A stretch of DNA of 63,102 bases, filler included. It is 10 parts of 10 records of this genome, joined end to end, with 100 filler letters (N's around TTAATTAATTAA, not from the genome) between each part and the next. Parts side by side here need not be neighbours in the genome. Positions count along the whole stretch, not along the records: positions 26,435 to 45,253 come from SRR15195285_351; 9 more parts are not named here. One strand, 5' to 3'. Of the stretch, positions 28,662 to 42,900 are shown piece after piece. Position 1 is the stretch's first letter. The number at the start of each line of letters is the position of its first letter. A program made the position numbers and the translations under genes. Under the pieces are notes generated by a model. The model had not been told where the DNA came from. It searched no databases and saw only the letters and a list, made by a program, of their open reading frames with translations.

Positions 28662-29206
28662 TGTAAGTAATGGAAGTCCAGTGGGGCTTTTCTGAAATTC
28701 GTCGGATGAACGCTCACTGTTCTACACGTGACTTGCTGCATTGCGTGGGTCGAGCACTCAAGCTGGACTCTGCTGCACCCAGACGTCAAACATCTCAATC
28801 GCTAAACGCTTTGCCTTGTTCGCTCGCCTGCGATTCAGCGTCCACCTTCTCCGTCTTGGCTGGATCTGGCGCTACCCGAAGCAGTAACTTACTTTCTATC
28901 TCTCCTTGCTGTATGGCCAAACCCAACGTACTTTTGCCAGCATCGGGGCCACTCGTCATGCGCAAGCAGCTTGAGCACCGACGGTTGCCTCGCACATGCA
29001 GCAAGCATTTTCGTTTGCTGATTGATCTCATAAACAAATAGGGCTCGAAGCGCTCAAGTGTCTAGTGATGCCATTGGTGTGGATCGCTGGAGACCAGACC
29101 CTCGCGCAAGCTATGGAGCGCGTGACGCACGCAATGCAACGCTGTTGTTGTTGGAAAAAGAGAGTATAATGTGCCTATGTTGATTCAGGTACATACCTAG
29201 GGTTGC

Positions 29207-29288
29207 GCGTGGGTGGTGCATTCGGGTGGCTGTAGCAGAGACTTTTGCTCCACAGTGAACAGCCGCCGTCAATAGCATCCATGCACGC
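29207..29288 (-). promoter_or_regulatory. Candidate non-canonical eukaryotic SECIS element
   Basis: Minus strand: GCGTG ca TGG a TGC tat [TGAC] GGCGGCTGT tcact GTGGAG caaaagt CTCTGC t ACAGCCACC [CGAA] t GCA CCA cc CACGC. This gives helix I, a UGAN/NGAN quartet, helix II and an apical mini-stem, about 35 nt after the TAG stop. Confidence 0.6.
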
Positions 29289-29321
29289 TAGAAAGTTGAT
29301 GCAAGAGGTCTAGATGATTGT

Positions 29322-30203
29322 CTAGGCGGAGACCGGCCGTGTCCCTGCGAAGTTGGCTGTACGTGTGGTCGTGGAGGTGCGAAAATCACCCCAGCCGAGC
29401 AGAACGACGTCCACGAAGCCTGCTGCGCCCATCATCCGAAGGTATTCTTCGGGCGTGACGCAGCCCTCAACTCAGCTGCTCCAGGACGAATCCGGCGCTG
29501 ACTCCGCGGACTGTCAGCTTGGTGGGGATGAACCCACCACCGACACGCACGTGGCTGGCTCGACGACAACGTCTGTCTGTTTGTCGACGAAAAGATTGAA
29601 GACGCCGTTGCTGATGGTGACGTCCGCCGCGGCTGCTGGCATGCGAGCAAAAGACGCAGCCTGGTCGATCGGGCTACAGATCAGATCACCACGCTCCAGT
29701 GGGCGCCTGTCACCAAATTTCTCGACCGTGGTGGCAGTACGGTCCAGCATGGCCTGCGTAATATCGATACCAACGAGCGTCCCACTTGGACCGACAAGCT
29801 TCGATGCGATGGCGAGATCGTGCCCCCCACCACAGCCGAGGTCTACCACACAACTCCCTTCACCTGGCAACGCTCCGAGTGGGGCTCCAAACACGAAGGG
29901 GCACCCACCACCACACGCAATTCCTAGCAGCTCGTCGACTGCCGCTGAGTCACTGATGCTGGCCACCTCGCGCAACCACTCTTCGGAATACCCCCAGGAC
30001 GTCGGGCGTTGGTTTGCCTCCTCTGAGGCGCTCTCCTGGGACCGATGGCTCTGTGCCATTGCCGAGTAGGAGCGTATCACGTCCAGATACTCAGGCTTCG
30101 CCAGGTCGATGTCCCCCTCGTTCCGCGCAGCCGTGCCGACGCCCAGCCCGGCTGCCACAGTGTTCAGCCGCGCCATGCGCCGCATCCCCGACCCAGCTGC
30201 CAC
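29322..30203 (-). CDS. Arsenite-methyltransferase (ArsM/AS3MT)-like SAM-dependent methyltransferase, probable selenoprotein with two in-frame UGA
   Basis: GIACGGGCPF, VVDLGCGGGHD, VGPSGTLVGIDITQAML, DVTISNGVFNL. The frame continues through TGA 29514-29516 and TGA 29472-29474 as ...PPS-U-QSAESAPDSSWSS-U-VEGCVTPEEYLRMMGAAGFVDV...GDFRTS...ANFAGTRP to TAG 29322-29324. The true start ATG is uncertain. Confidence 0.82.
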
Positions 30204-30703
30204 GGCAGCAACACGACGAGCGTATAGTGGTCAGCGCGTGGGCGCTAGCTCGAGCTCGCGCGCGCGCCGCGCCGGCTGCACGCCGTGTGCCTTTTTAGGG
30301 CATCGCGAAGCACGCGGCGCGGCCGCCCCCGCGATGCGCATGCACGAGACTAGAGCGCGAGCGGCGAGGCGCGTGTGTTCCGTGTGATTTAGCATTTACT
30401 CAGCATATATGCTGGTTCTAGTAGTAATACCGCCACTCCGGCGCTTGATCGTGTACACGGTAGATCAATGATATTATATAGTAGCACTGAATTAATAGAT
30501 CACCCGAGCTCGCGATGCCGCCGACCCCCGCGATTCAATCCCTTGGTTTGATTCGTCTGCCGGTATAGTACTGAGAACCCACTGAGAAATTGATGACCCC
30601 CCGCTGCCCTCCCCGACTCCACCGAATGGAAAAGCAAATGTATATATATTCATATGTAAATTGTAATTCTGAACCAGAGATTTTTGCGGCTCCTGGAAAA
30701 TGA

Positions 30704-30837
30704 GCTTCTCTGGCTGTTTTCGCGAAAGACACGGTAGGTAGCGGAGACTCTCCGCCGTACACCGTGTGTTTAGTGTGCTTCTCCGGCTGTTTCTGCGAAA
30801 GGCACGGTGGGTAGCGGGGAGTCTCCGCCGTGTACAC
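30704..30837. repeat. Imperfect tandem duplication (two ~60-nt units, period 73)
   Basis: gcttctctggctgttttcgcgaaagacacggtaggtagcggagactctccgccgtacac (30704-30762) versus gcttctccggctgtttctgcgaaaggcacggtgggtagcggggagtctccgccgtgtacac (30777-30837). Confidence 0.85.
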
Positions 30838-30909
30838 ACCAAGAGGGCTGCGGCTGCTTCGACTCCCCGCAACATCGGCGAAGTTGCGGTAGCCGCGCTA
30901 GAGCTGAAG

Positions 30910-33900
30910 ATGTTCGGCGGGAAGGAGAACAGCTCGGGCGGCGGGGGCGGCGGGGGCGGCTTCGGCGGGTTTAAGCTTGCGGAAGCTGGGCAGACGCCCA
31001 CCCCGAGCGCGCCCAAGGGCGGCGCTAAGGCGGGGGGCTTCTCGTTCGGGGCGCTGGGTGGCGGCGGCGGCGCTGACGTACCGGCGGCGCCGAAGGGTGG
31101 GTCCAAGGCCAGCGGCTTCTCGTTCGGAGCCTTGGGCGGCGGCGGCGGCGCGACTGCAGACAGCGCGAGCAGCGGGAAAGGGAATGGCCAGGCTGGGGGC
31201 GCGCCGCCGTCCGCGCCCAAGGGAGGAATGCCCAGTGCCGGCTTCTCGCTGTCCGGTGGCGAGAAGATTTCGGCGCCAGCCGCGAAGGCTACGGCGCCAG
31301 CAGCGAAGCCCAGCGGGGTCCCCTTTGCGTCAGCTCTCACGGCCAGCCAGCCGAAAAAGGGTGATGATGCGGCGGCCAAGAAGGTCGGCTTCGCGCTGCA
31401 GCCCGCTGCGAGCACAGCAGTGACCAAATTCGCTACTGCGGCTGCGAGCGGCTCCCCGGACTTGCCAGACGCACCAGACGTCGTGAGCGGCGACGCGCAG
31501 TTGGGTTCCAGTTCAAATCGCGATGTTTTGCACGGTCTGCGAGGGCCAGACTTTGCGTCGCTGCTCTCGACCCCAGCGGTCAAGCGGCGGCTGGAATTGC
31601 TGACCTCGATGTACTGTGGGCCGCCTGTGGTCACACAGGACCAAGAACTGGTCACGCGAACGGCGACGCCGCGCACTGCTGACATGCGGCAGAAGAAATT
31701 GCTGTATGCACACTTGATTTCGGAGGCCGCGCGGAAAAAGGTGGAGCCGGCTTCGGACGGCCGAGACGACAGCTGGATCGACCAGGTCAGCTTCATGACG
31801 AACCTGCACCAGAAGCAGGCATTCCAAATCTGGCAGCTCTTCCGCGAGACGATCGTGGAAGCAGATCACGCGGCCACACGTCCGTCTGGAAGTCGCGACT
31901 TTCATCTAACGCGGGCCGTCATGCCCTCGACGGTCGAAGAGCTTGGTGCTATCAAGGACCCTAAGGTGGCACAAGGCAGCCATCAGACTGCCCGTGACAT
32001 TCTCGAGTTCTACTTCAGCGAGCGCCTGGACATTATTCGCTGCGCGATCGTTGCACTAGCCCCAGGGACGTCGCGCCAGGATGCTCTTCAGTCTGCCGGC
32101 CTCAGTCCCCGGAAGATGCTGCATGCTGCGCTGTTTACCCTTGCTGAGACAGCTGGGGATCGCGCGGGTATGCGTGGAGGGCCGGGCGCGCGCGAGCAGC
32201 TGCTCGCCCGATGGCCGCACGTCGGAGAGCGGCATCTAGTTGAGCCGGTGGAGCGAGGGCTGCGTCTACCACTGTGTGCTCACGATCGGACCCGTGTGGA
32301 TCCGCAGCTCCGGGAACGGGAGCCGCGCCAGCAGGAGGAGGAGCATCTGCTACTGCTGCAGCTGGTCTTGCAGGCTCTGACAGCGGACGCGACGGACGCA
32401 ACCGATCGGCATCCCCACCAAGACCTAGACATGCTTTTCGAAATGTTTGAGCACTCTAAGTGGCGCGCATTGCCGCCGCACAGGAAGGCATTTGGTGTGA
32501 TGCTGCGGTGCTTCGTTGTCATGCAGTGGTTTTGCGTCGACAGTGCGGCCGGCGAGCAGTCCAGACTGCGCGGCTCTGGTGTTGGCAGCCGCGGTATTGC
32601 TCAGAGGATCGACGAAAGCGTCGAACGTTTTGCTCAGCTGCGCCTAGATCAGCTCATGGCTGGTGCAGAGCGAGAGTTCTGCCACGATGCGGTGCCCGCT
32701 ATGGCCAGCCTTAGCTGGGCCTTGAGTGCGCTGCAGCAAATGGTGAAGGCAAAACATCTGATAGATAGCTTCACCGTAGAGGGCGAGTTTGACATCCGCG
32801 AGCATGACGAGCGTGGTTTCGGCCGTACGAACTTTGCTACGCTGGATGACCAGACTAAACGGCAGAAGCAGATGCGGCGTCCGCTAACATCAGAAGAGTC
32901 GCAGCTCATAAAAGATGCGATCATTGCTGGGGTGACAGAGGATCACCTTCGCGAAGAGGATTTATTGTCGTACGATAATGGTGGCGAGTGGCCATGCCCG
33001 AACCCGAAGCGGAAAATCAAAATGGAACTGCTCGGCCTGTATGAGGACTTTGACCGTTACTTCGCGAAGAGTATGCAGCAGGCCACCAGCCTAGACGCAG
33101 AGTACGTGCTGCACGAGCTCGTTGAGCTCGCGGACGAGTGTGAGGATGAAGCACTTCCAGTTGGATTTTTTAAGGATACCCTGTGGCGCAGCGTGCTGGG
33201 ATGGACCGACCCAGACGTCGTCCTCGTTGACCGCCAAGCGAATTTTCTAAAGCTGATCCCACGAATCATTCAGAACTCGCAGAGCCCGGTCGGCCGTGGA
33301 CCGATGGACCTGCATCACGTAGACTGCAGCTGCGAGCGCGTAGGAGCAGAGCTGCAGGTGGCCGTCGGTGGTCTTCTTGCAATCATTGACGGCAGCGAAG
33401 ACCAATCGAAAAGAGACTCATCAAGGAGTGCCTCGCGGTTTCTGCACTTCGTGCGCTACACGCTGGAGAACTTCGCGAAAGCAAGCAACAAGTTTGCATC
33501 GCTTTTGACAGGGATGGCGTCCGGGTCGAACCAGGCTCCGATCGTTGTTAAAGACCTATTATGCACGGTGGATGTTCCCGTTGCAGGACCGGCAAGTGCG
33601 GCAGGGATTGCAGTCGGTCGTCAGCGCACATGTGTGCTTACTCCACAGGGGGGCGGTACTGCGCCTTTACGGGTGCTGGTAGTTCACACAGTGATATACT
33701 GCTGTGAGCGTTTGCGCTCGGCCGACCCGACGACTCCGGAGCATTCAAACTCTGTATCAACGCTAAGGGCATGGCTGCAGCTGTTGGTCGCCGTGCTCGG
33801 CGACAGTAAACGCCCTGAGAATGGTTCGACCGACGACTGGGTTGCGTTCTTAGACGAGGTGGCAGCGACTCATTACTGGGAGAGGTATCACCTCGATCTA

Positions 33901-36900
33901 CTTGCCCACCTGGTACCGACTGCTTCCGCCGATCCCCCGTATCTCATCTCTACGGCGCGAACTGGTGCAGGAGTGGGAGTCGCCCTGTGCGCGGCCATCT
34001 TGCGTGCACTATCGACGATTCGCAGCGCAAAGTCCTGGGACGTGGATGGCCTGGAGACAGCTACGGCTTGCGTAGAGGTGTTGGGCATAGCAGCTGCAAA
34101 TGGCTCAGGTCATCTTGCCTTCCACTCGCCAAACGATTCGCATGGCGCACGGTTCATCTTGTCGACACTGGAAAGCATCGACACTCACTGCGCGAAGGCC
34201 GCGACAGTGACAGTGCCATCACTAGCCTGGCGTCTGCAGAAGCAGCGTGGTAGATTCGCTATTGCCTGCCTAGACTTCATGTCTCTGCTACTGTCTCATT
34301 TGCAATGTCGAACTGCAGCATGGAATCTCGTCGCCGAACCAGAGGACTGCGTGCGACTTGTCTCACACTTTGCGGCACAACTTGCCAGCGGCCTATCGCA
34401 CAACGTTCTCGACCAGGAACGCTGGAAGGTGGCAGAGGGTTGTGCCACTGTTCTTGCACAATGCCTTGATACTGCAGTTGTTTCTACGACGGCGTCTGCA
34501 GGAATCTCTGGAATCGCAGACAGTCAGGCAAGGCTTACCGTCCTGCACAGGATTCTGCTTCCGCATGCAGAAGATTCAGCCATACTCGACTTCCTGCTAG
34601 AGGTGATCGCACAAAGCCTACGGTGGAGCCACCTTCTGGCACGGCAGGCGCGCCGGAAGGCGTTGATGGCAATGCAGCGCGTCATCGCGCGGACCCTAGA
34701 CCTGCTCCGGGCTGCTTTGTCTACTCCGGTGGATTTTCTACATCGTCATGATTTGTATCCAATGTCAGGCACCACTCTTGCTCGGCGCTTGTTCTTGATG
34801 CGAGTTAATGTGTCTGGGCCCACTAATGACCAGAATACTTCCTTGGTTGACGAGATTGCAGAGCTATGTTCCTGGAACTGTGACGGCTCCGAAACTGGTC
34901 GTGATGTGGTGCTTTCAGCGACTCGCACCATGACCGTTCTCTGCCGGCTGCTGGGTAGCCCAGACTTCGGTTGTGGAGAGACGCCTACGTCAGCGGCCAA
35001 TCATCAGAAGGCAAAAGCAAATGGGAGCCACTCCGTCGTTGGGGACACAGCTCTGCGTGGCTCCGCTACCCGTGCTATGGATGGTGGTGACCAAAAAGGG
35101 CACGCCAACCGCCCCGTGTCATGGTCGATTGTAGCGGCAGTTGGTGGTGCACGTGCCTGCCAGACATTCGTTTCGATTGCAGAGAAACGACTGTCGGAGT
35201 TCAGCATGCAGCCCGAAAGCGAGGAGCTGTACCTCGCGACGCTTGACCTGGTAGACGCTGCGATTACCTCTCGTGACGGGCTAGCAGACTTCTACGTTTC
35301 GCCGCGCTGCATGACGCTCGTGTGGGATGCGAAGCAGAACGAATCTTTGGAAAAGAAAGATGTACGGGCTGTAGTAGCGAAACTCCTTCATGCTCCCGAC
35401 CTACCAGTCCTGGAGAACGATCGCGGATGCAAAGTGGTGGAATCGGATAGAGCGAACGAGGTCGAACTAGCCTTTGCAACGCCGAGCCACTTCGCACATG
35501 CAGAGCGCATTTTCGGTTCGTTTGGACAGTACAAGCGCAGCATTGAGTTCAAGCGCGGCTCACGCGTCGTCAAATTTAGTGGTGAAGGCCTGAAGGTATG
35601 GCCAAAGCCTGCAGGGTTCTTGCAAGAGCTGCTAGGACAGTTGTCAAAGAGTCGCAGTGACAGTGACGCCACTTGCCAGCGATATGCTTCAGGCCTTGAG
35701 CTGCTGTTCAATATTCTGCAGCATTACTGTGACTATCCGCCTGTCGTGGCAGTGGTGCTGCGGCGAGACTTGCTGAAAAACATCCTGCCCGACCGCAAGG
35801 CTCCGGCGCGCCGTGCAGTCTCTGTCCATGCGATGGCTCTGGCCTGGCGGGTGGCTGGACAGTGCCTCGGAATTGCAGCCTCATGCAAGAAGGACGAAGC
35901 CACCAAAGCAAATGCGAGGTGGCTTCATGAAGATATCGAGACTTTCTTCCAGAAAACTCTCGAGCAATCGGTAGATGATATGTTTGCAATCGACAGGTCA
36001 CCACAGCGATCACTTCAAGACCGCCTCCAGTCCTTTGGGGTGGCCGCAGCTTCATTCAGATCAGTGCGTGCGATGACTTCTTCGGTCGTCCTGAACCCAC
36101 AGTTTGACACTCGGCAAGTGCTGGGACACATGTCTTTCGCTGCGCGCAGTCGTTTTTGGAACGTGCAACGCGAACCGACAGAACGCGAGCTGCTCAACCA
36201 GCTGTGGCGGCTGCGTGCAGACATGCTTGCCTTGTCTGCGGACGCTCTGTGTTACGGATACGGAGATCCACCATTGGATGGGACGCAAGCTCAGGCGGAG
36301 GGTCTGGTTTGGGCAGGAGATGATGAGTACGACCAGTATTTTTTCCAACTATCGGGTCCCATCTTGACTCACTATGAGTTTCGTGATGAAGGCGACCTTC
36401 GCACGATGCGCGGTGATACGAAAACGCACTTTCACCTTGGCGGCAGTAAGATTGTGCGAGAGACTGTCTTTTCGGTTAGTGCAGATCACAGCAGCTACCG
36501 TATCGAGTTAGAGCTTGCAGCTGGTGGGCAAATAACGTTGGAACTACACCCACGCCCACGTCAGGCATCAGGGTGGGAAGTCGCCAAAGACTCGATGCGC
36601 CGTGCAGTGCAAGATGGGATTGCATACCCCTGTCTGTACATGAAAGAGCTCACGGGCAACACTGCCACAACGGCGATTGTCATCGGAGGGGATGCATCAC
36701 ATGACGCAGTAGCTGAGGAGGAACGGAATCTTGCGGTTAAGATGTGCGCCGAGTTAGAAGGGATTGCAGGCCCACTGCTGCGTCCTTGCGCAAGAAGAAT
36801 CTTTTGCATGCAAACGGTGGCGTTGCAAGGCCACAGCGCTCTGACACAAATGGGCAGCGTTACTGTGCAAGCGTCGACTGCTTCGCAACTAGTGGCTAAC

Positions 36901-39900
36901 GTGCTCGCAAAGCTATCAACCCGTGTTTATCTGCACAGAAGCTGCCCTGGAACGGACGAGGAGATTCGAACGCAATTTCGAAAGTACGGGCGAGTGCGTC
37001 GGGCAGACCTGTGCGAAAGCAACGGCATTCGGTGGGTTCAGTACGATAATTTCGACTCGGCGGAGCGTGCCCGCTCAGCGAATGAGCAATTTGTGGACGG
37101 ACAGCGGATCAAAGCAGCCCGCTGTATGCCGCAAGGCGCGTCTGCCTTCATGCGTCGCAAAGGCTCTGGCGAGTTTTCTCTGCTCGCACAACTTGATGCT
37201 GACGTGGACGATGAGCATTTAATGCTCAGGCATGAGCCAGACTCACGAACAGACTACGCACGCTTTCTCGGCCTGCGATGTGGAAAGCAATTCTTTGCGC
37301 GTCTCACGCCGCAGGAGCATGAGAACGCATCGGAGCTGCTTCGCGCGATGTTTGCGATATGCATCGCGCTGACCATCAAATCTGACGAGGCTCTTCGTCA
37401 GTTAGGGGTGTTCCAGACTCGGCTTGCAACTGCTGTCTCCTCGATGGTTGGAGTGCATGTCCACATAGGTGGATCCATTCCCGTTGGTGTGCGAGCAAAA
37501 CTTATGAGGGCGTTGCAGCGAGGAATGCTAGCGGTCACACGTCGGCCGCCAAACGGGCAAGGGTATGTGTCGAGGCTAGAGGCATCCGCATTGCTTCTGG
37601 CCTTTCTGCTCAAATGCCGCAGCGATGGTCGCAAATCGGAGGGGCCGCTAGGTGAGCTGACTGTCTACATTCGTGAGTCAGGTTCGTTGCAATCTGAATC
37701 ACTACAGGCTAGGCTTGGTCGAATGTTTGATACCATCGACTCCGACGCATCTGGAGAGGTGGACACTAAAGAGGGCAAAGATTTTTTGGTTTCGCAAGGC
37801 GTGCCCTCCGCGCAGGCCGACCAGGTATGGACCAAGCTTCTCGCTGAGGCTGATTCCAACGGCGATGGGAAACTCGACAAGCAGGAGTGGGTGAGTGGAT
37901 TCTTCAACATTCAGGCTGGAATTCAGGGCCAAACCTTGGCATCGTCCCTGGATGAGATTCTGTTCCGGCCCAGCTCCGTACGCCACCGCTTCGACAAGTT
38001 GTTTGACAAGATCGACGTGGACAAATCTGGAACGATTGATGAACGCGAGGCGAAACAGTTCTTCTCTCGAGAAGGTGTACCGCCTGCTTTCCTTGAGCAG
38101 TTCTGGCAAGAAGTACTGGAGAAGGCTGACATTGACTCCGATGGGCACATCTCACGAGAGGAGTGGGGTTCTGTTGGCGCAGAAGTTTTTATCTCTGCCA
38201 AACGTGCAGGTCGTGTTAGTTTTGCATCATCGATCGTGGACATGACCATGTTGCTGAAGCAATGTACGACTTCGCGCTTCTTGGTTGCGAAGATTGACGA
38301 CAGCAAGATCCAGGGGGCGATCGAGGACGTTGATCAAGTTGATACTAGCGTGTATCGAGAATGCCTTTATGGTCTGACGGATCTGAACGCACCTGCCCGA
38401 ATTTTCCGCAACATGCCGTCGATTGGCATCGTTGTTCACGATCCACACAAGGTACCAGGTTTGCTAGCCGGGATGTTTCTCGAGTCGGTCAACGGTGTGC
38501 CGGTCGAAAAACTCGGCAGCTTCGATGATGTGATCGTACGGATCAAGACAGCTCAAAAGCCAGTGCGGTTGTCGATGCAAGTCCCAGAGCACGCGTCAGC
38601 ACGCATCGAGATCAGCAACCGAGTTGTCGATATGAGCCTTCCCACCTGGCGTTTCTCCGATTCCGCTAAGCTGCGTATGAGCAGGCTGTTTGACGCCATC
38701 GACTCAGATGGATCTGGGGAATTGGATGTAAACGAGTGGAAAGCTTTCCTAACCGAGCAACGCGTTGACCCTGCCAAACATGAGAAGAACTGGAACACAC
38801 TCATGGCCGAAGTTGACAAAGATGGTGATGGCAAGGTCAGTAAGGGCGAGTTCACAGAAGGTTGGCTGCGGCTGTTCGGGTGGAAAGCTGCAGCAAGAGA
38901 TGTCGAAGGTGTGTTTCGTGGGACAGCGATCGCCGATCGACCCGATGAGCTTGTCATGCTGAAGACGGCCAAGCTAACGCAGCTCGACATGGCCGGGACG
39001 CACGTCGGCGGGAGTGACACAGATGAAGATGTGGCGGGGAAGCAGTCAACAATGGCACAGGCATTGGTTCTGTGCAAGTCGTTGTTCGAGGCATCTGGTG
39101 TGACTCCTGGGGGAGTGCAGCATTGGGCGCTTGCGCGCGCAGCTCTAGCGAACCTTCTGACTATTTCCAATGAGCTTGCGAATATGGTAATGCGTGATCA
39201 GGACGGCACACACTCGCACGTATGTGGCCGAGGCACAGGGAGCGACGGGGCTGTTGTCAATGAGAGCGACGCCCGTGCTGCATTAGTTGAGCGGCTGCTG
39301 GTTAAAGAATGGGGCGAACGACTGGGATGTGACCCGTACGAGGCATCAATGCTGATCTGTGGCACCCTGCCGTCGATCTGCGCGTCGCTCAAGCATCTGC
39401 ACGTTGTTGCTGAAGACTTGGCACAATCTCCACTCAACGATCATAGCCTGCGTGAGCAGATGGAGCACGCTTTCCGCTCTCGGCGCAACATCAGCGTTGA
39501 TATCCCCAGCAGCCATCCGATGTCCGCTGCAGAGCAGCGCCCTCCACGAAAATTTACGATCTGTCCTTGTGTGCGAGGAGGGGTGGCGCAAGACGAGCGG
39601 GGGGTATTCCTGGTTGGCGATGGCCAGGCGGCGTTCGTACCCGAGTCCGGGTCTGCTTCAACAGTGGTGTTGCTTCACAACGTCACCGTCAAGACCTCCG
39701 GAGCACGTGGGCTAACATTGTCTCTGGACCGAAGAGGGGTGGCAGCTGGCGTGGTCCTGGAAGTGGGCGAACTTTTGCATCACCATGACACGCTTCAGAC
39801 AGTAGTAACATTGCGTGATGAGGCTGTGGCCAGGCATGAGGTGTGGGAGCTTGCGTTGACTACGCTGGCGGCACTTGTTCGCCAGGCTGTCGACAAACCA

Positions 39901-42900
39901 GCTGTGGTAGCGTCGCTTGTACGCTTTGACTTGGTGAGGCTGTTGTGCGCTCGACTTGCAGTGCTGCAACGCCCAGAGGTTGTGGTGCACGGCGATAAAT
40001 CCAACGAAGAGCAGCCCGACGCTTGGGGTGCATTGCCCTCCGCGCAGCTGGGAGCTGCAACTATCCGCCGTTCGGAGGCCGATACACGACTTGCTCTGCA
40101 GATCATGGACGCCCTGATCGCGATCGCAGACGTGTCCACAGGCGAGCACAGCGTGGTGCAGCTGTTGGTAGCATCTGAGGCTATTCCAGTGCTGACCGAG
40201 TTTGTGTTCGATGACGAGGAGCTCGCGGCGGCTTACGAGCCGGACGGTCGACGTGCCAGCTCACACATCTTATGGTGTCGTATTCTACGGTTCGTGTCCA
40301 CGCTCCTGCGCATCTTCCTGTCCGAGCTGCCGTACAGAGGCAACAGCACGCTAATTGCGCAGTTGATGGCGTTCATAAGTTCGCACCAGAGCCGCCTTGG
40401 CCTGCAGTGGAGTGACGCTGAGGTTGTACGTTCGATCGCATCGACGGACGCATCTGCGTTGCCCAAAGCTATTTGGCTCAGTGGTGGTGGCGTGAGAGCA
40501 GGTCGGACCTGCCCAGCTGTGGGTCTGGCGAAGCTTGGCGGGACACGCACCCTCAACATGGCCAGTGCACTGATCGCCCTACGATCACGAGGCTTAACAG
40601 AGGCGTGGCTGGAAGAGATCGAGGCAGTGTCAAGATTGCTGACAGTGGTGGGCAACTCTGCATCTGTATGGAAGTCTACGCACGCAGAAATCCTGCCTGC
40701 GCTGGTACAGCGCCTGATGGACACTGTGCGAGTGTGCACACTTGTGCTGCAGACAGATCCAGTTCGTGATGTTGCGAAATCGGCTACTGGTGAAGGTACA
40801 GAACTGGCCCCGTTGCGGAATGAAGAAGGTGGCACGTTCGGCCGAGCACAAAATGCTGCGAACGGTGGCATCCAATCCGGATCGCGCCAGTCGAGCTCTG
40901 GCAGTGACGGAGGTTGGGGCGCCAGGCAGTCCCGGAATGCCTCGCGCCGACCGTCACGTCATCGGTCGCGTCAGGAGCGGCAAGGTTCGAAGGCAAAGGA
41001 CTCTGAGTCCGAGCCGGCCGCGGAACTGAGCGCTGAGGAAAGTGCAGCCTCCTCGGGAGTGCACACATCCGACCTCTTCACACGACATTACGGGCAGGAC
41101 GAGCGCCTCTGTACGCCACAGGTATGGCATACTGCGTCTGGTGCACAATCCAGTGCAGGTGCGGGTACACCAGCTGAGCAGAAAGCTCTCGCCATTACAG
41201 TGAACCAGGGCTTCCTCACAGTGATCAAAAGTGCAACACACTGCTTACGTGCTCTCTCGCCCGCACCGCTGCCCGGCCGTGCCGTCGGTGCTGCAGGGAT
41301 CTTCTCGCTTCCTTGCTCGTCGCGACCAGATCTTCCGCCGATCCGTGACCTGCAACAGCAGATCGAACGATTTGCAGAGCGTCGCTGCGTGTCGCTACTA
41401 CGTGAGCAGGCGCGACCGATGGCGTGCTATCATCAGGGATCTGACGATTCACTCTACCGAGCTGTTGCCTTCCAGTTGAATGCTGAGATTGTCGAAGACA
41501 GCAACAGTGCCACCGGTGCAGCGGAACAGGAGCACGCTTCGGGTCCATCAGATGTCCCGTGGTGGCTAATGGCAGATAACGACCCTGAAGAGGTGATTGA
41601 GAAAGTTGGGATGGTGCTCGGTTTGCTGCAAATCTTTGACAAAGCAGACGTCGATGGATCCGGCCGCCTGGACGAAGGGGAATGTAAGGATCTGCTTGAA
41701 GCGATGTTCGATGACGACCGTCGAGAGGTCATCGACGAAGCCTGGACGAGATTGCTGAAACGCGTGTCTAAGTCCAGCAGCGCTCCAGTCAGAGGAAAAT
41801 CGCAGATCTCGAAGGACGAATGGGTTCACGTATGGATGCCACCGGCGAATCCTGCAGAGGATTGGGTTCCTCTGCGGCCATACGTGCAGCTAGGAGGGCC
41901 AATCGCTGGAGCGACTGCTTCTGGGCGTGCGGCCGAGCTGCAAAGCATATTCCGGTTAAAAGGCGTTGATGTGTACCAAGAGCTTTTCGACGAGCTTGCG
42001 AAGGCGGCGCAAGTACGGAGCAGCGGAAGTGGAAAGTCTGTGGATGCTATGGATTCAGCCCACATTGACAAGCTCCCTCGCGCCCTGGACCTCGACCGCG
42101 TGCTAGGCAAGGACGACGTGGAGAAAGTCCGTAAAGATCTGAAGCTCGCCGGCGGAGGGCAGCTTACAGCGGCAGCTTGGCGTGCGTGGCTGCAGGGCAG
42201 CACTGATTCAGTAAAGCGTATCATGCGGCTGAAGAATGAGCGGCTCGCTGACGATGAGCTTTTTGACGTGGTCGACCAGATGCGCAACGACCACGGTCGT
42301 TTTGGAATATCGGTGCGTGCCGCACCAACAGTAATGTGTCCACGTGTCCAGTTCGGAGTTGCCTGTGACCTTAAAAGCTTTCTTTTGTGTCGAACTGAGC
42401 AGAAGGAGATGACTTTCAGTGATGTTTCCTACAACGCGCGCGACGACGCTAACATCTTGCTTGCCATCGCCTACGCGTAAGTGTGCTCCACAGGCCCACT
42501 TGTAGCTGTGATTTGTCAAGCCCATCAATGCTGACGTTTCGTCGTGCCGCGGCTTGCATAGGTATAATCGGCCTGTACATGTGCTCCAGTATTCGTCTCG
42601 CCCAATTTTCAACTCTGACGAGCATGTCCCCCAGACCCAAGAAGATTGGTGCAGGAGAACGGATCAGGCAGCTCGCAGCAACGGCCTTGCGCGCGGCACC
42701 GACTGGACTACTGTGCAGCTTAACTCCCGTGGCAAGGAACGGCATCCAATTCGGCTCTCGTTGCACCTTTTCGGCAGATCGCGGTACGCTGCTGTGCTGC
42801 AGGCCAAGGCGGCACCATCGGCAGCTACCGGGCAGGACGACCCCCGCGTTGTGCGACTGCTCGAGGTGGACGGTGCACCTGCGCAGACGTCAGTGCAGCT

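Follow-up and report, generated by a model that had tools for sequence, protein, structure and literature searches.

A putative ArsM-like methyltransferase gene with two in-frame UGA codons, probably decoded as selenocysteine, from an uncultured and most likely picozoan marine protist

The window, which is the whole stretch of DNA analyzed here (63,102 nucleotides, filler included), contained a minus-strand reading frame for an ArsM-like class I S-adenosylmethionine (SAM) methyltransferase that was interrupted by two TGA codons. The frame started with a GTG at 30203 (the first ATG was at 30185, and the public model P0179 used an alternative start, the ATG at 30176), reached a TGA at 29516-29514, passed through 13 sense codons to a second TGA at 29474-29472, and then stayed open for 49 sense codons before it closed with a TAG at 29324-29322. 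A preliminary description of this DNA had proposed a frame that reads through two TGAs to the TAG at 29322, and our translation of the minus strand confirmed it; the residues that it gave around the second TGA, SWSS-U-VEGCVTPEEYLRMMGAAGFVDV, were found as written. The coordinates of the gene and its features are shown in Table 1.

Divergent from the methyltransferase gene, an uninterrupted 3904-codon ORF with Gly/Ala-rich N-terminal repeats was located on the plus strand (30766-42480), and the two shared a 580-nt intergenic region. In the upstream intergenic segment 30196-30391, DNA run X1 carried a variant in which 67 other letters took the place of a 59-nt stretch and which also had several substitutions and small indels; this indicates strain variation in the promoter region.

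Table 1. Features of the methyltransferase locus, in window coordinates
Feature	Position	Strand	Description
Read-through CDS, ArsM-like class I SAM methyltransferase	29322..30185	-	287 residues from ATG 30185, two proposed Sec
SAM-binding motif I, VVDLGCGGG	29823..29849	-	Pfam region; columns invariant in alignments A1 and A2
C-G-G-G-C pair (Cys97, Cys101)	29901..29915	-	Invariant in the 8 eukaryotic sequences of A2; aligned in A1
ISNG motif	29604..29615	-	Gly at the third catalytic Cys of canonical ArsM (ISNC)
Junction of 54-nt in-frame deletion	29577..29578	-	18 residues lost (AGFDAAFYCTKPGGHFLL in P0002), KPGG helix-strand core segment
First in-frame TGA	29514..29516	-	Residue 230 of P0001 (window product); proposed extra Sec, loop before C4 motif
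Second in-frame TGA	29472..29474	-	Residue 244 of P0001; predicted Sec at the ArsM Cys224 column; motif U-V-E-G (UxxG)
49 codons after second TGA	29325..29471	-	C-terminal part of the fold: AGFVDV helix/strand and final strands
Candidate non-canonical SECIS, 82-nt extended hairpin	29207..29288	-	Starts 34 nt after the TAG

Both TGAs were present, with 0 differences, in a contig of DNA run X1 (record 2, 28990-29577) and in a contig of RNA-library run X10 (record 9, 29395-29545), and these matching contigs ruled out a sequencing error at the TGAs. It had been suggested that reads might show TGC or TGG at these sites; the contigs of X1 and X10 showed TGA at both. A contig of DNA run X4, which came from another study, covered 29166-29525 with 1 unlisted difference near the contig end; thus, X4 vouched for the second TGA only.

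Conservation past the UGAs had been proposed as a check on the read-through frame, and it was observed. When the 49 codons after the second TGA were used alone as a BLASTP query, they matched P0006 from Chrysophaeum taylorii with an E value of 1e-13 and 50% identity, and they matched the bacterial-type protein P0014 with an E value of 1e-5. The GC3 value was 0.68 upstream of the first TGA and 0.71 between that codon and the TAG; in the 3' UTR, it dropped to 0.51. Given these E values and GC3 values, it is unlikely that the frame continues by chance. A search for short C-terminal fragments (query residues 225-293) among shorter proteins yielded no candidate.

Searches for domains and solved structures placed the predicted protein near the arsenite methyltransferases. 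Pfam returned only generic class I SAM methyltransferase domains (Methyltransf_31/25/11, residues 112-210). The best PDB match was CmArsM (4kw7 / 4fr0, E value of 4e-11), and the matches to 4kw7, 4fr0, and 5evj spanned E values of 4e-11 to 4e-8; the proposed ArsM/AS3MT-like identity was upheld in that the best solved relatives are arsenite methyltransferases. The second U aligned with the C of YGEC-LGG in 4kw7 and with the Cys of P0012, P0014, and P0015 in alignment A1. In other words, the second UGA fell exactly on the Cys224 column, in a U-x-x-G motif, which agreed with the earlier assignment to the last catalytic Cys. The reported Gly in place of the ISNC cysteine was also found (ISNG, 29615-29604). 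This cysteine, which we take to be Cys174 in CmArsM residue numbers, was absent from the window product and from all 8 eukaryotic relatives in alignment A2, each of which had ISNG; because it is missing, the substrate of the enzyme may differ from arsenite. Cys97 of the CGGGC pair aligned with the SCGN cysteine of ISNC-type ArsM homologues in A1.

The top NCBIfam models, with bit scores and cut-offs, were NF041537 (91/510), NF047649 (87/460), NF008823 (74.6/263), and NF041536 (70.8/575). All of these scores were far under the curated cut-offs, and thus the protein is ArsM-like but not a canonical ArsM. The matches to the selenoprotein models covered profile positions of about 56-252 only. Two eukaryote-type Cys forms of the ISNG branch, P0013 and P0053, were fused to N-terminal EF-hand calcium-binding domains.

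The position of the second TGA is a known Sec position of the family. Published catalogues have included Sec-containing ArsM-like methyltransferases since 2007-2008. Specifically, they credit Ostreococcus and Thalassiosira with a methyltransferase selenoprotein (PMC2375036), report selenoproteins of the arsM type from both prokaryotes and eukaryotes (PMC2398784), and list "MT" among the algal selenoprotein families (PMC7539508) and an "arsenite S-adenosylmethyltransferase, PRK11873/NF008823" with UxxG and 1 Sec in prokaryotes (PMC13188914). The statement that Sec-containing ArsM-like enzymes are known is therefore borne out for bacteria and algae (PMC2375036, PMC2398784, PMC13188914).

DNA of relatives was collected in a metagenome scan with generic patterns, which gave at least 80 loci; those listed (L001-L080) were all bacterial-type and 25-44% identical, and none came from a close eukaryotic relative. 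A total of 64 methyltransferase domains were read from the DNA of these 80 listed loci, with TGA shown as U; 5 domains were too short, and 2 were without the motif. Among the matches listed, the column of the last catalytic Cys (C4) was occupied by TGA in 31 of the 39 ISNG-type bacterial domains and by Cys in the remaining 8, whereas the ISNC-type bacterial domains had Cys in 18 of 18 cases and TGA in none of the 18; the loci were picked with a pattern that contained SNGV, so G-type domains were over-sampled and it is the contrast between the two types that counts. This strict association between ISNG and TGA suggests that Sec use goes together with the loss of the third catalytic Cys, and, within the matches listed, it supplies a simple annotation rule for the family.

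Predicted proteins showed a corresponding pattern of ends. Among 177 predicted homologues, which were assigned to classes by regular expression with one or two loose assignments (e.g., P0041 and P0062), 33 of the 64 G-type proteins ended 30-75 residues after motif III, compared to 1 of the 91 C-type proteins. Of these 33 G-type proteins, 15 stopped immediately short of the C4 column; the last residues were W-x-x in 11 of them and GDxx[ST][ST] in the other 4. A Cys at the C4 column was scored in 22 G-type homologues, including P0041, which was probably a loose regex match. Gene models of this family are systematically truncated, as more than half of the predicted proteins of the G type break off within the loop or at it. 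The public model of P0006 from C. taylorii joined ...DVCEVPRQ straight to ANVVAGCVSPDEY, so that both the loop and the C4 residue were missing; this model was apparently spliced around an in-frame TGA, which would make P0006 a mis-annotated selenoprotein. Taken with the alignments, the DNA of the bacterial relatives makes a predicted Sec at the second UGA strongly supported.

Because both TGAs aligned with Cys columns, a code in which UGA means Cys would also explain the alignments, and UGA might stand for a standard amino acid (Cys or Trp) in this lineage through a code change or through near-cognate read-through. However, the window contained TGA-free ORFs of 3912, 1682, and 1095 codons, and 7 of its 17 long ORFs ended in TGA. 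These findings ruled out a genome-wide reassignment of UGA and also spoke against a standard amino acid at the two sites, as did the TGA in the same column of at least 31 bacterial genes of the ISNG branch, a column that is catalogued as a Sec position (PMC13188914). We consider it highly improbable that UGA is read as Cys or Trp here.

In the case of the first TGA, the evidence came from the ends of predicted proteins and from a cysteine in the loop. The predicted proteins P0002, P0003, P0004, and P0009 and their cluster mates P0180-P0182 (61-93% identity) ended in ...PS at the window's first TGA. The proteins in the P0035/P0183 cluster (10 members, 57% identity, contigs of 682-2804 nt) ended in ...GSS at the same place, and one of these members carried the source name Picozoa sp. 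COSAG04. We infer, from the predicted proteins and not from their DNA, that the stop in these relatives is a TGA and that the downstream frame is kept. Of 35 more distant G-type relatives, 25 had a Cys in the loop, 6-19 residues ahead of the C4 column (9 of the 14 proteins that ended before C4 and 16 of the 21 with Cys at C4), and the first U of the window product was at offset 14 upstream of C4. A loop TGA was found in 0 of the 57 bacterial domains read from metagenome DNA, among the matches listed, which is in line with the earlier remark that two Sec residues would be unusual for this family. The first TGA is most simply explained if the loop cysteine was converted to Sec within a picozoan clade, and it seems likely that the first UGA is decoded as Sec. 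Thus, the proposal that both UGAs encode Sec held with different force at its two sites; for the second site, it had the strong support of the TGA/Cys column, and for the first site, the relatives' ends and the loop Cys made it likely.

The first TGA could instead be removed by a very short in-frame intron, which would leave the second UGA alone as Sec. By plain reading of the sequence, a 27-nt GT...CAG stretch that could serve as such a GT...AG intron spans the first TGA, and single-Sec forms dominate among the relatives. However, a length of 27 nt is far below that of an ordinary spliceosomal intron. In addition, record 9 of X10 was unbroken over 29395-29545 with 0 differences, and gene calls on many of the relatives' contigs, several of which were about 1-3 kb and were likely to be transcripts, stopped at exactly this codon. 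We therefore view a mini-intron at the first TGA as quite unlikely. The same contig answered the earlier call for a splicing check, since it crossed both TGAs unspliced, with the qualification that an RNA library may hold DNA.

RNA-library contigs were found at 29196-29382 (X10 record 8), 29395-29545 (X10 record 9), and 29729-29938 (X10) and at 29622-29774 (X18), and 29546-29621 was without RNA-library cover. Such contigs cannot prove transcription; the libraries may contain DNA.

The preliminary description had called the locus a hidden gene and had made no mention of a deletion, but the copy in the window was not intact. Between FVDKQ and TDVVVEP, P0001 was without 18 core residues that are present in each of the 13 other members of alignment A1; the gap was unique to P0001 among the 14 sequences. 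Within the core that runs from motif I through KPGG, motif I was present and the KPGG segment was missing. The public model P0179 corresponded to residues 10-229 of P0001, with the deletion included. Record 2 of X1 was identical to the window over 588 nt (28990-29577) and then continued for 63 nt, the first 30 of which, when reverse-complemented, read CTKPGGHFLL in frame. Since this environmental contig was undeleted and otherwise identical, the natural population holds an undeleted gene. The window's 29577/29578 junction was bridged by no contig in the four runs (X1, X4, X10, and X18), which reflected a lack of cover and was not a disproof of the junction. Judging from these sequences, the gene is probably intact in nature, and the window's deletion probably reflects either an amplification or assembly artefact or a defective allele. 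With this deletion, the assembly's copy is unfit as a reference sequence.

The N-terminal presequence (30100-30185, minus strand) was about 10 residues shorter than in P0002-P0004 and did not have the NKPIRWRP segment. Unlike the 54-nt deletion, this shorter N terminus is genuine, since it was seen in record 5 of X1 (29852-30225, no gaps).

An Rfam search for a SECIS element gave no match at an E value of ≤10 in 231 nt, in 3 kb, or in the whole window, and no tRNA, including tRNA-Sec, was found in the 63-kb window. The 3' UTR did contain an unusually stable candidate hairpin, with a K-turn-compatible UUGA (29272-29269) opposite a GA (29223-29222) and a helix II of 9 positions. The upper part consisted of an internal loop (UCACU), a 7-bp upper helix, and an AAAA loop. 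The predicted minimum free energy was -33.3 kcal/mol (z score of -3.12), and 1 of 200 shuffles was as good. No other loose K-turn match occurred within the initial 500 nt of the 3' UTR (across the window, the loose pattern had a background of 0.21 per kb and strand), and the candidate was located inside record 8 of X10 (29196-29382). It was without canonical SECIS features, having UUGA rather than AUGA and no AA at the expected distance. A second loose K-turn hairpin (28789-28757) was dropped; it was 530 nt away and had a 4-nt loop. Another loose K-turn match, which started at the second UGA codon (CUGAG...GGAC; 29410-29475, minus strand), was probably due to chance.

The locus might instead be a pseudogene or a defective allele, with the first TGA acting as a genuine stop or the entire gene in decay; the open frame beyond that codon would then be a remnant. 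Such a reading would fit the absence of the 18 fold-core residues from the window copy, of a canonical SECIS from the Rfam searches (231 nt to the whole window), and of a tRNA-Sec from the window. Decay is harder to reconcile with a stop that recurs at the same codon in relatives that are 57-93% identical and well conserved upstream of it, or with 63 downstream codons that are open, have coding-like GC3, and match a homologue at 1e-13. Furthermore, the 54-nt segment was present in the environmental contig that was identical to the window over 588 nt. The confinement of the RNA-library contigs to 29196-29938, with none in the flanks, was a weak hint in the same direction. On balance, we regard a pseudogene as unlikely, although less so than the mini-intron.

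We conclude that the locus is probably a picozoan nuclear gene for an ArsM-like (UxxG) methyltransferase in which both UGAs are decoded as Sec, the loop Sec is lineage-specific, and the deletion in the window is an artefact or a defective allele. The host is an uncultured marine protist, most likely a picozoan.

With both UGAs read as Sec, Sec244 would be the Sec that is usual for the family, in the position of ArsM's last catalytic Cys, and Sec230 would have arisen from the loop cysteine by a change specific to this lineage. In the ISNG branch, the loop cysteine may take over the role of the third catalytic Cys, which has been lost. The two selenols could then hold a soft metalloid next to SAM, the conserved CGGGC pair acting as their redox partner, and a methyl group would be transferred from SAM to the bound metalloid, for which arsenite is the best guess by homology. 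In a more specific version, the Sec230/Sec244 pair would replace the Cys174/Cys224 dithiol of ArsM and form a metalloid site with a diselenol/diselenide switch, which would have arisen in Picozoa by recent Cys-to-Sec change and would be served by a non-canonical SECIS (UUGA, no AA). We put this version forward tentatively, as it is doubtful that all of its parts are correct.

A second active-site thiol that has turned into Sec would point to which two residues act together in the ISNG branch. Relatives with Cys/Cys, Cys/Sec, and Sec/Sec all exist and form a natural Cys-to-Sec series for enzymology; in the excerpts of the literature that were examined, we found no biochemical study of Sec-containing ArsM-like methyltransferases. 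The gene is also indirect evidence for selenocysteine use in Picozoa, a lineage of heterotrophs that is uncultured. A literature search that combined Picozoa with selenoprotein found no described selenoprotein of Picozoa.

The family and the second Sec were known, and the proposed two-Sec form with the first Sec in the loop is new. The window protein shared several features with the published Sec-containing ArsM-like (UxxG) family: an ArsM-type class I SAM methyltransferase with UGA at the last catalytic Cys, the U-x-x-G motif, Gly at the ISNC position, Cys-containing homologues, and occurrence in marine eukaryotes. It differed from the published single-Sec form in the extra UGA, which is in the loop 14 codons upstream, and in its host lineage, Picozoa.

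More than one Sec per protein is found in the bacterial ArsM-domain selenoproteins NF041537 (ArsM/AhpD), NF047649 (MTase/UXPK-star), and NF041536 (ArsM/DUF2284), as listed in PMC13188914. The UxxG in the methyltransferase domain is common to these families and the window protein. However, judging by their names and by the motifs in the table of that source (PMC13188914), the bacterial families carry an added C-terminal domain or tail, whereas the window protein is without such an extension. Its second Sec would lie inside the methyltransferase domain.

In the case of canonical CmArsM/AS3MT (4kw7, 4fr0, and 5evj), motif I, the motif III region, and the C-terminal AGF helix all aligned with the window protein. 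In contrast to these enzymes, the window protein has a predicted Sec at the Cys224 column and Gly at the ISNC cysteine, is without the long C-terminal domain, and has the CGGGC pair and the proposed loop Sec.
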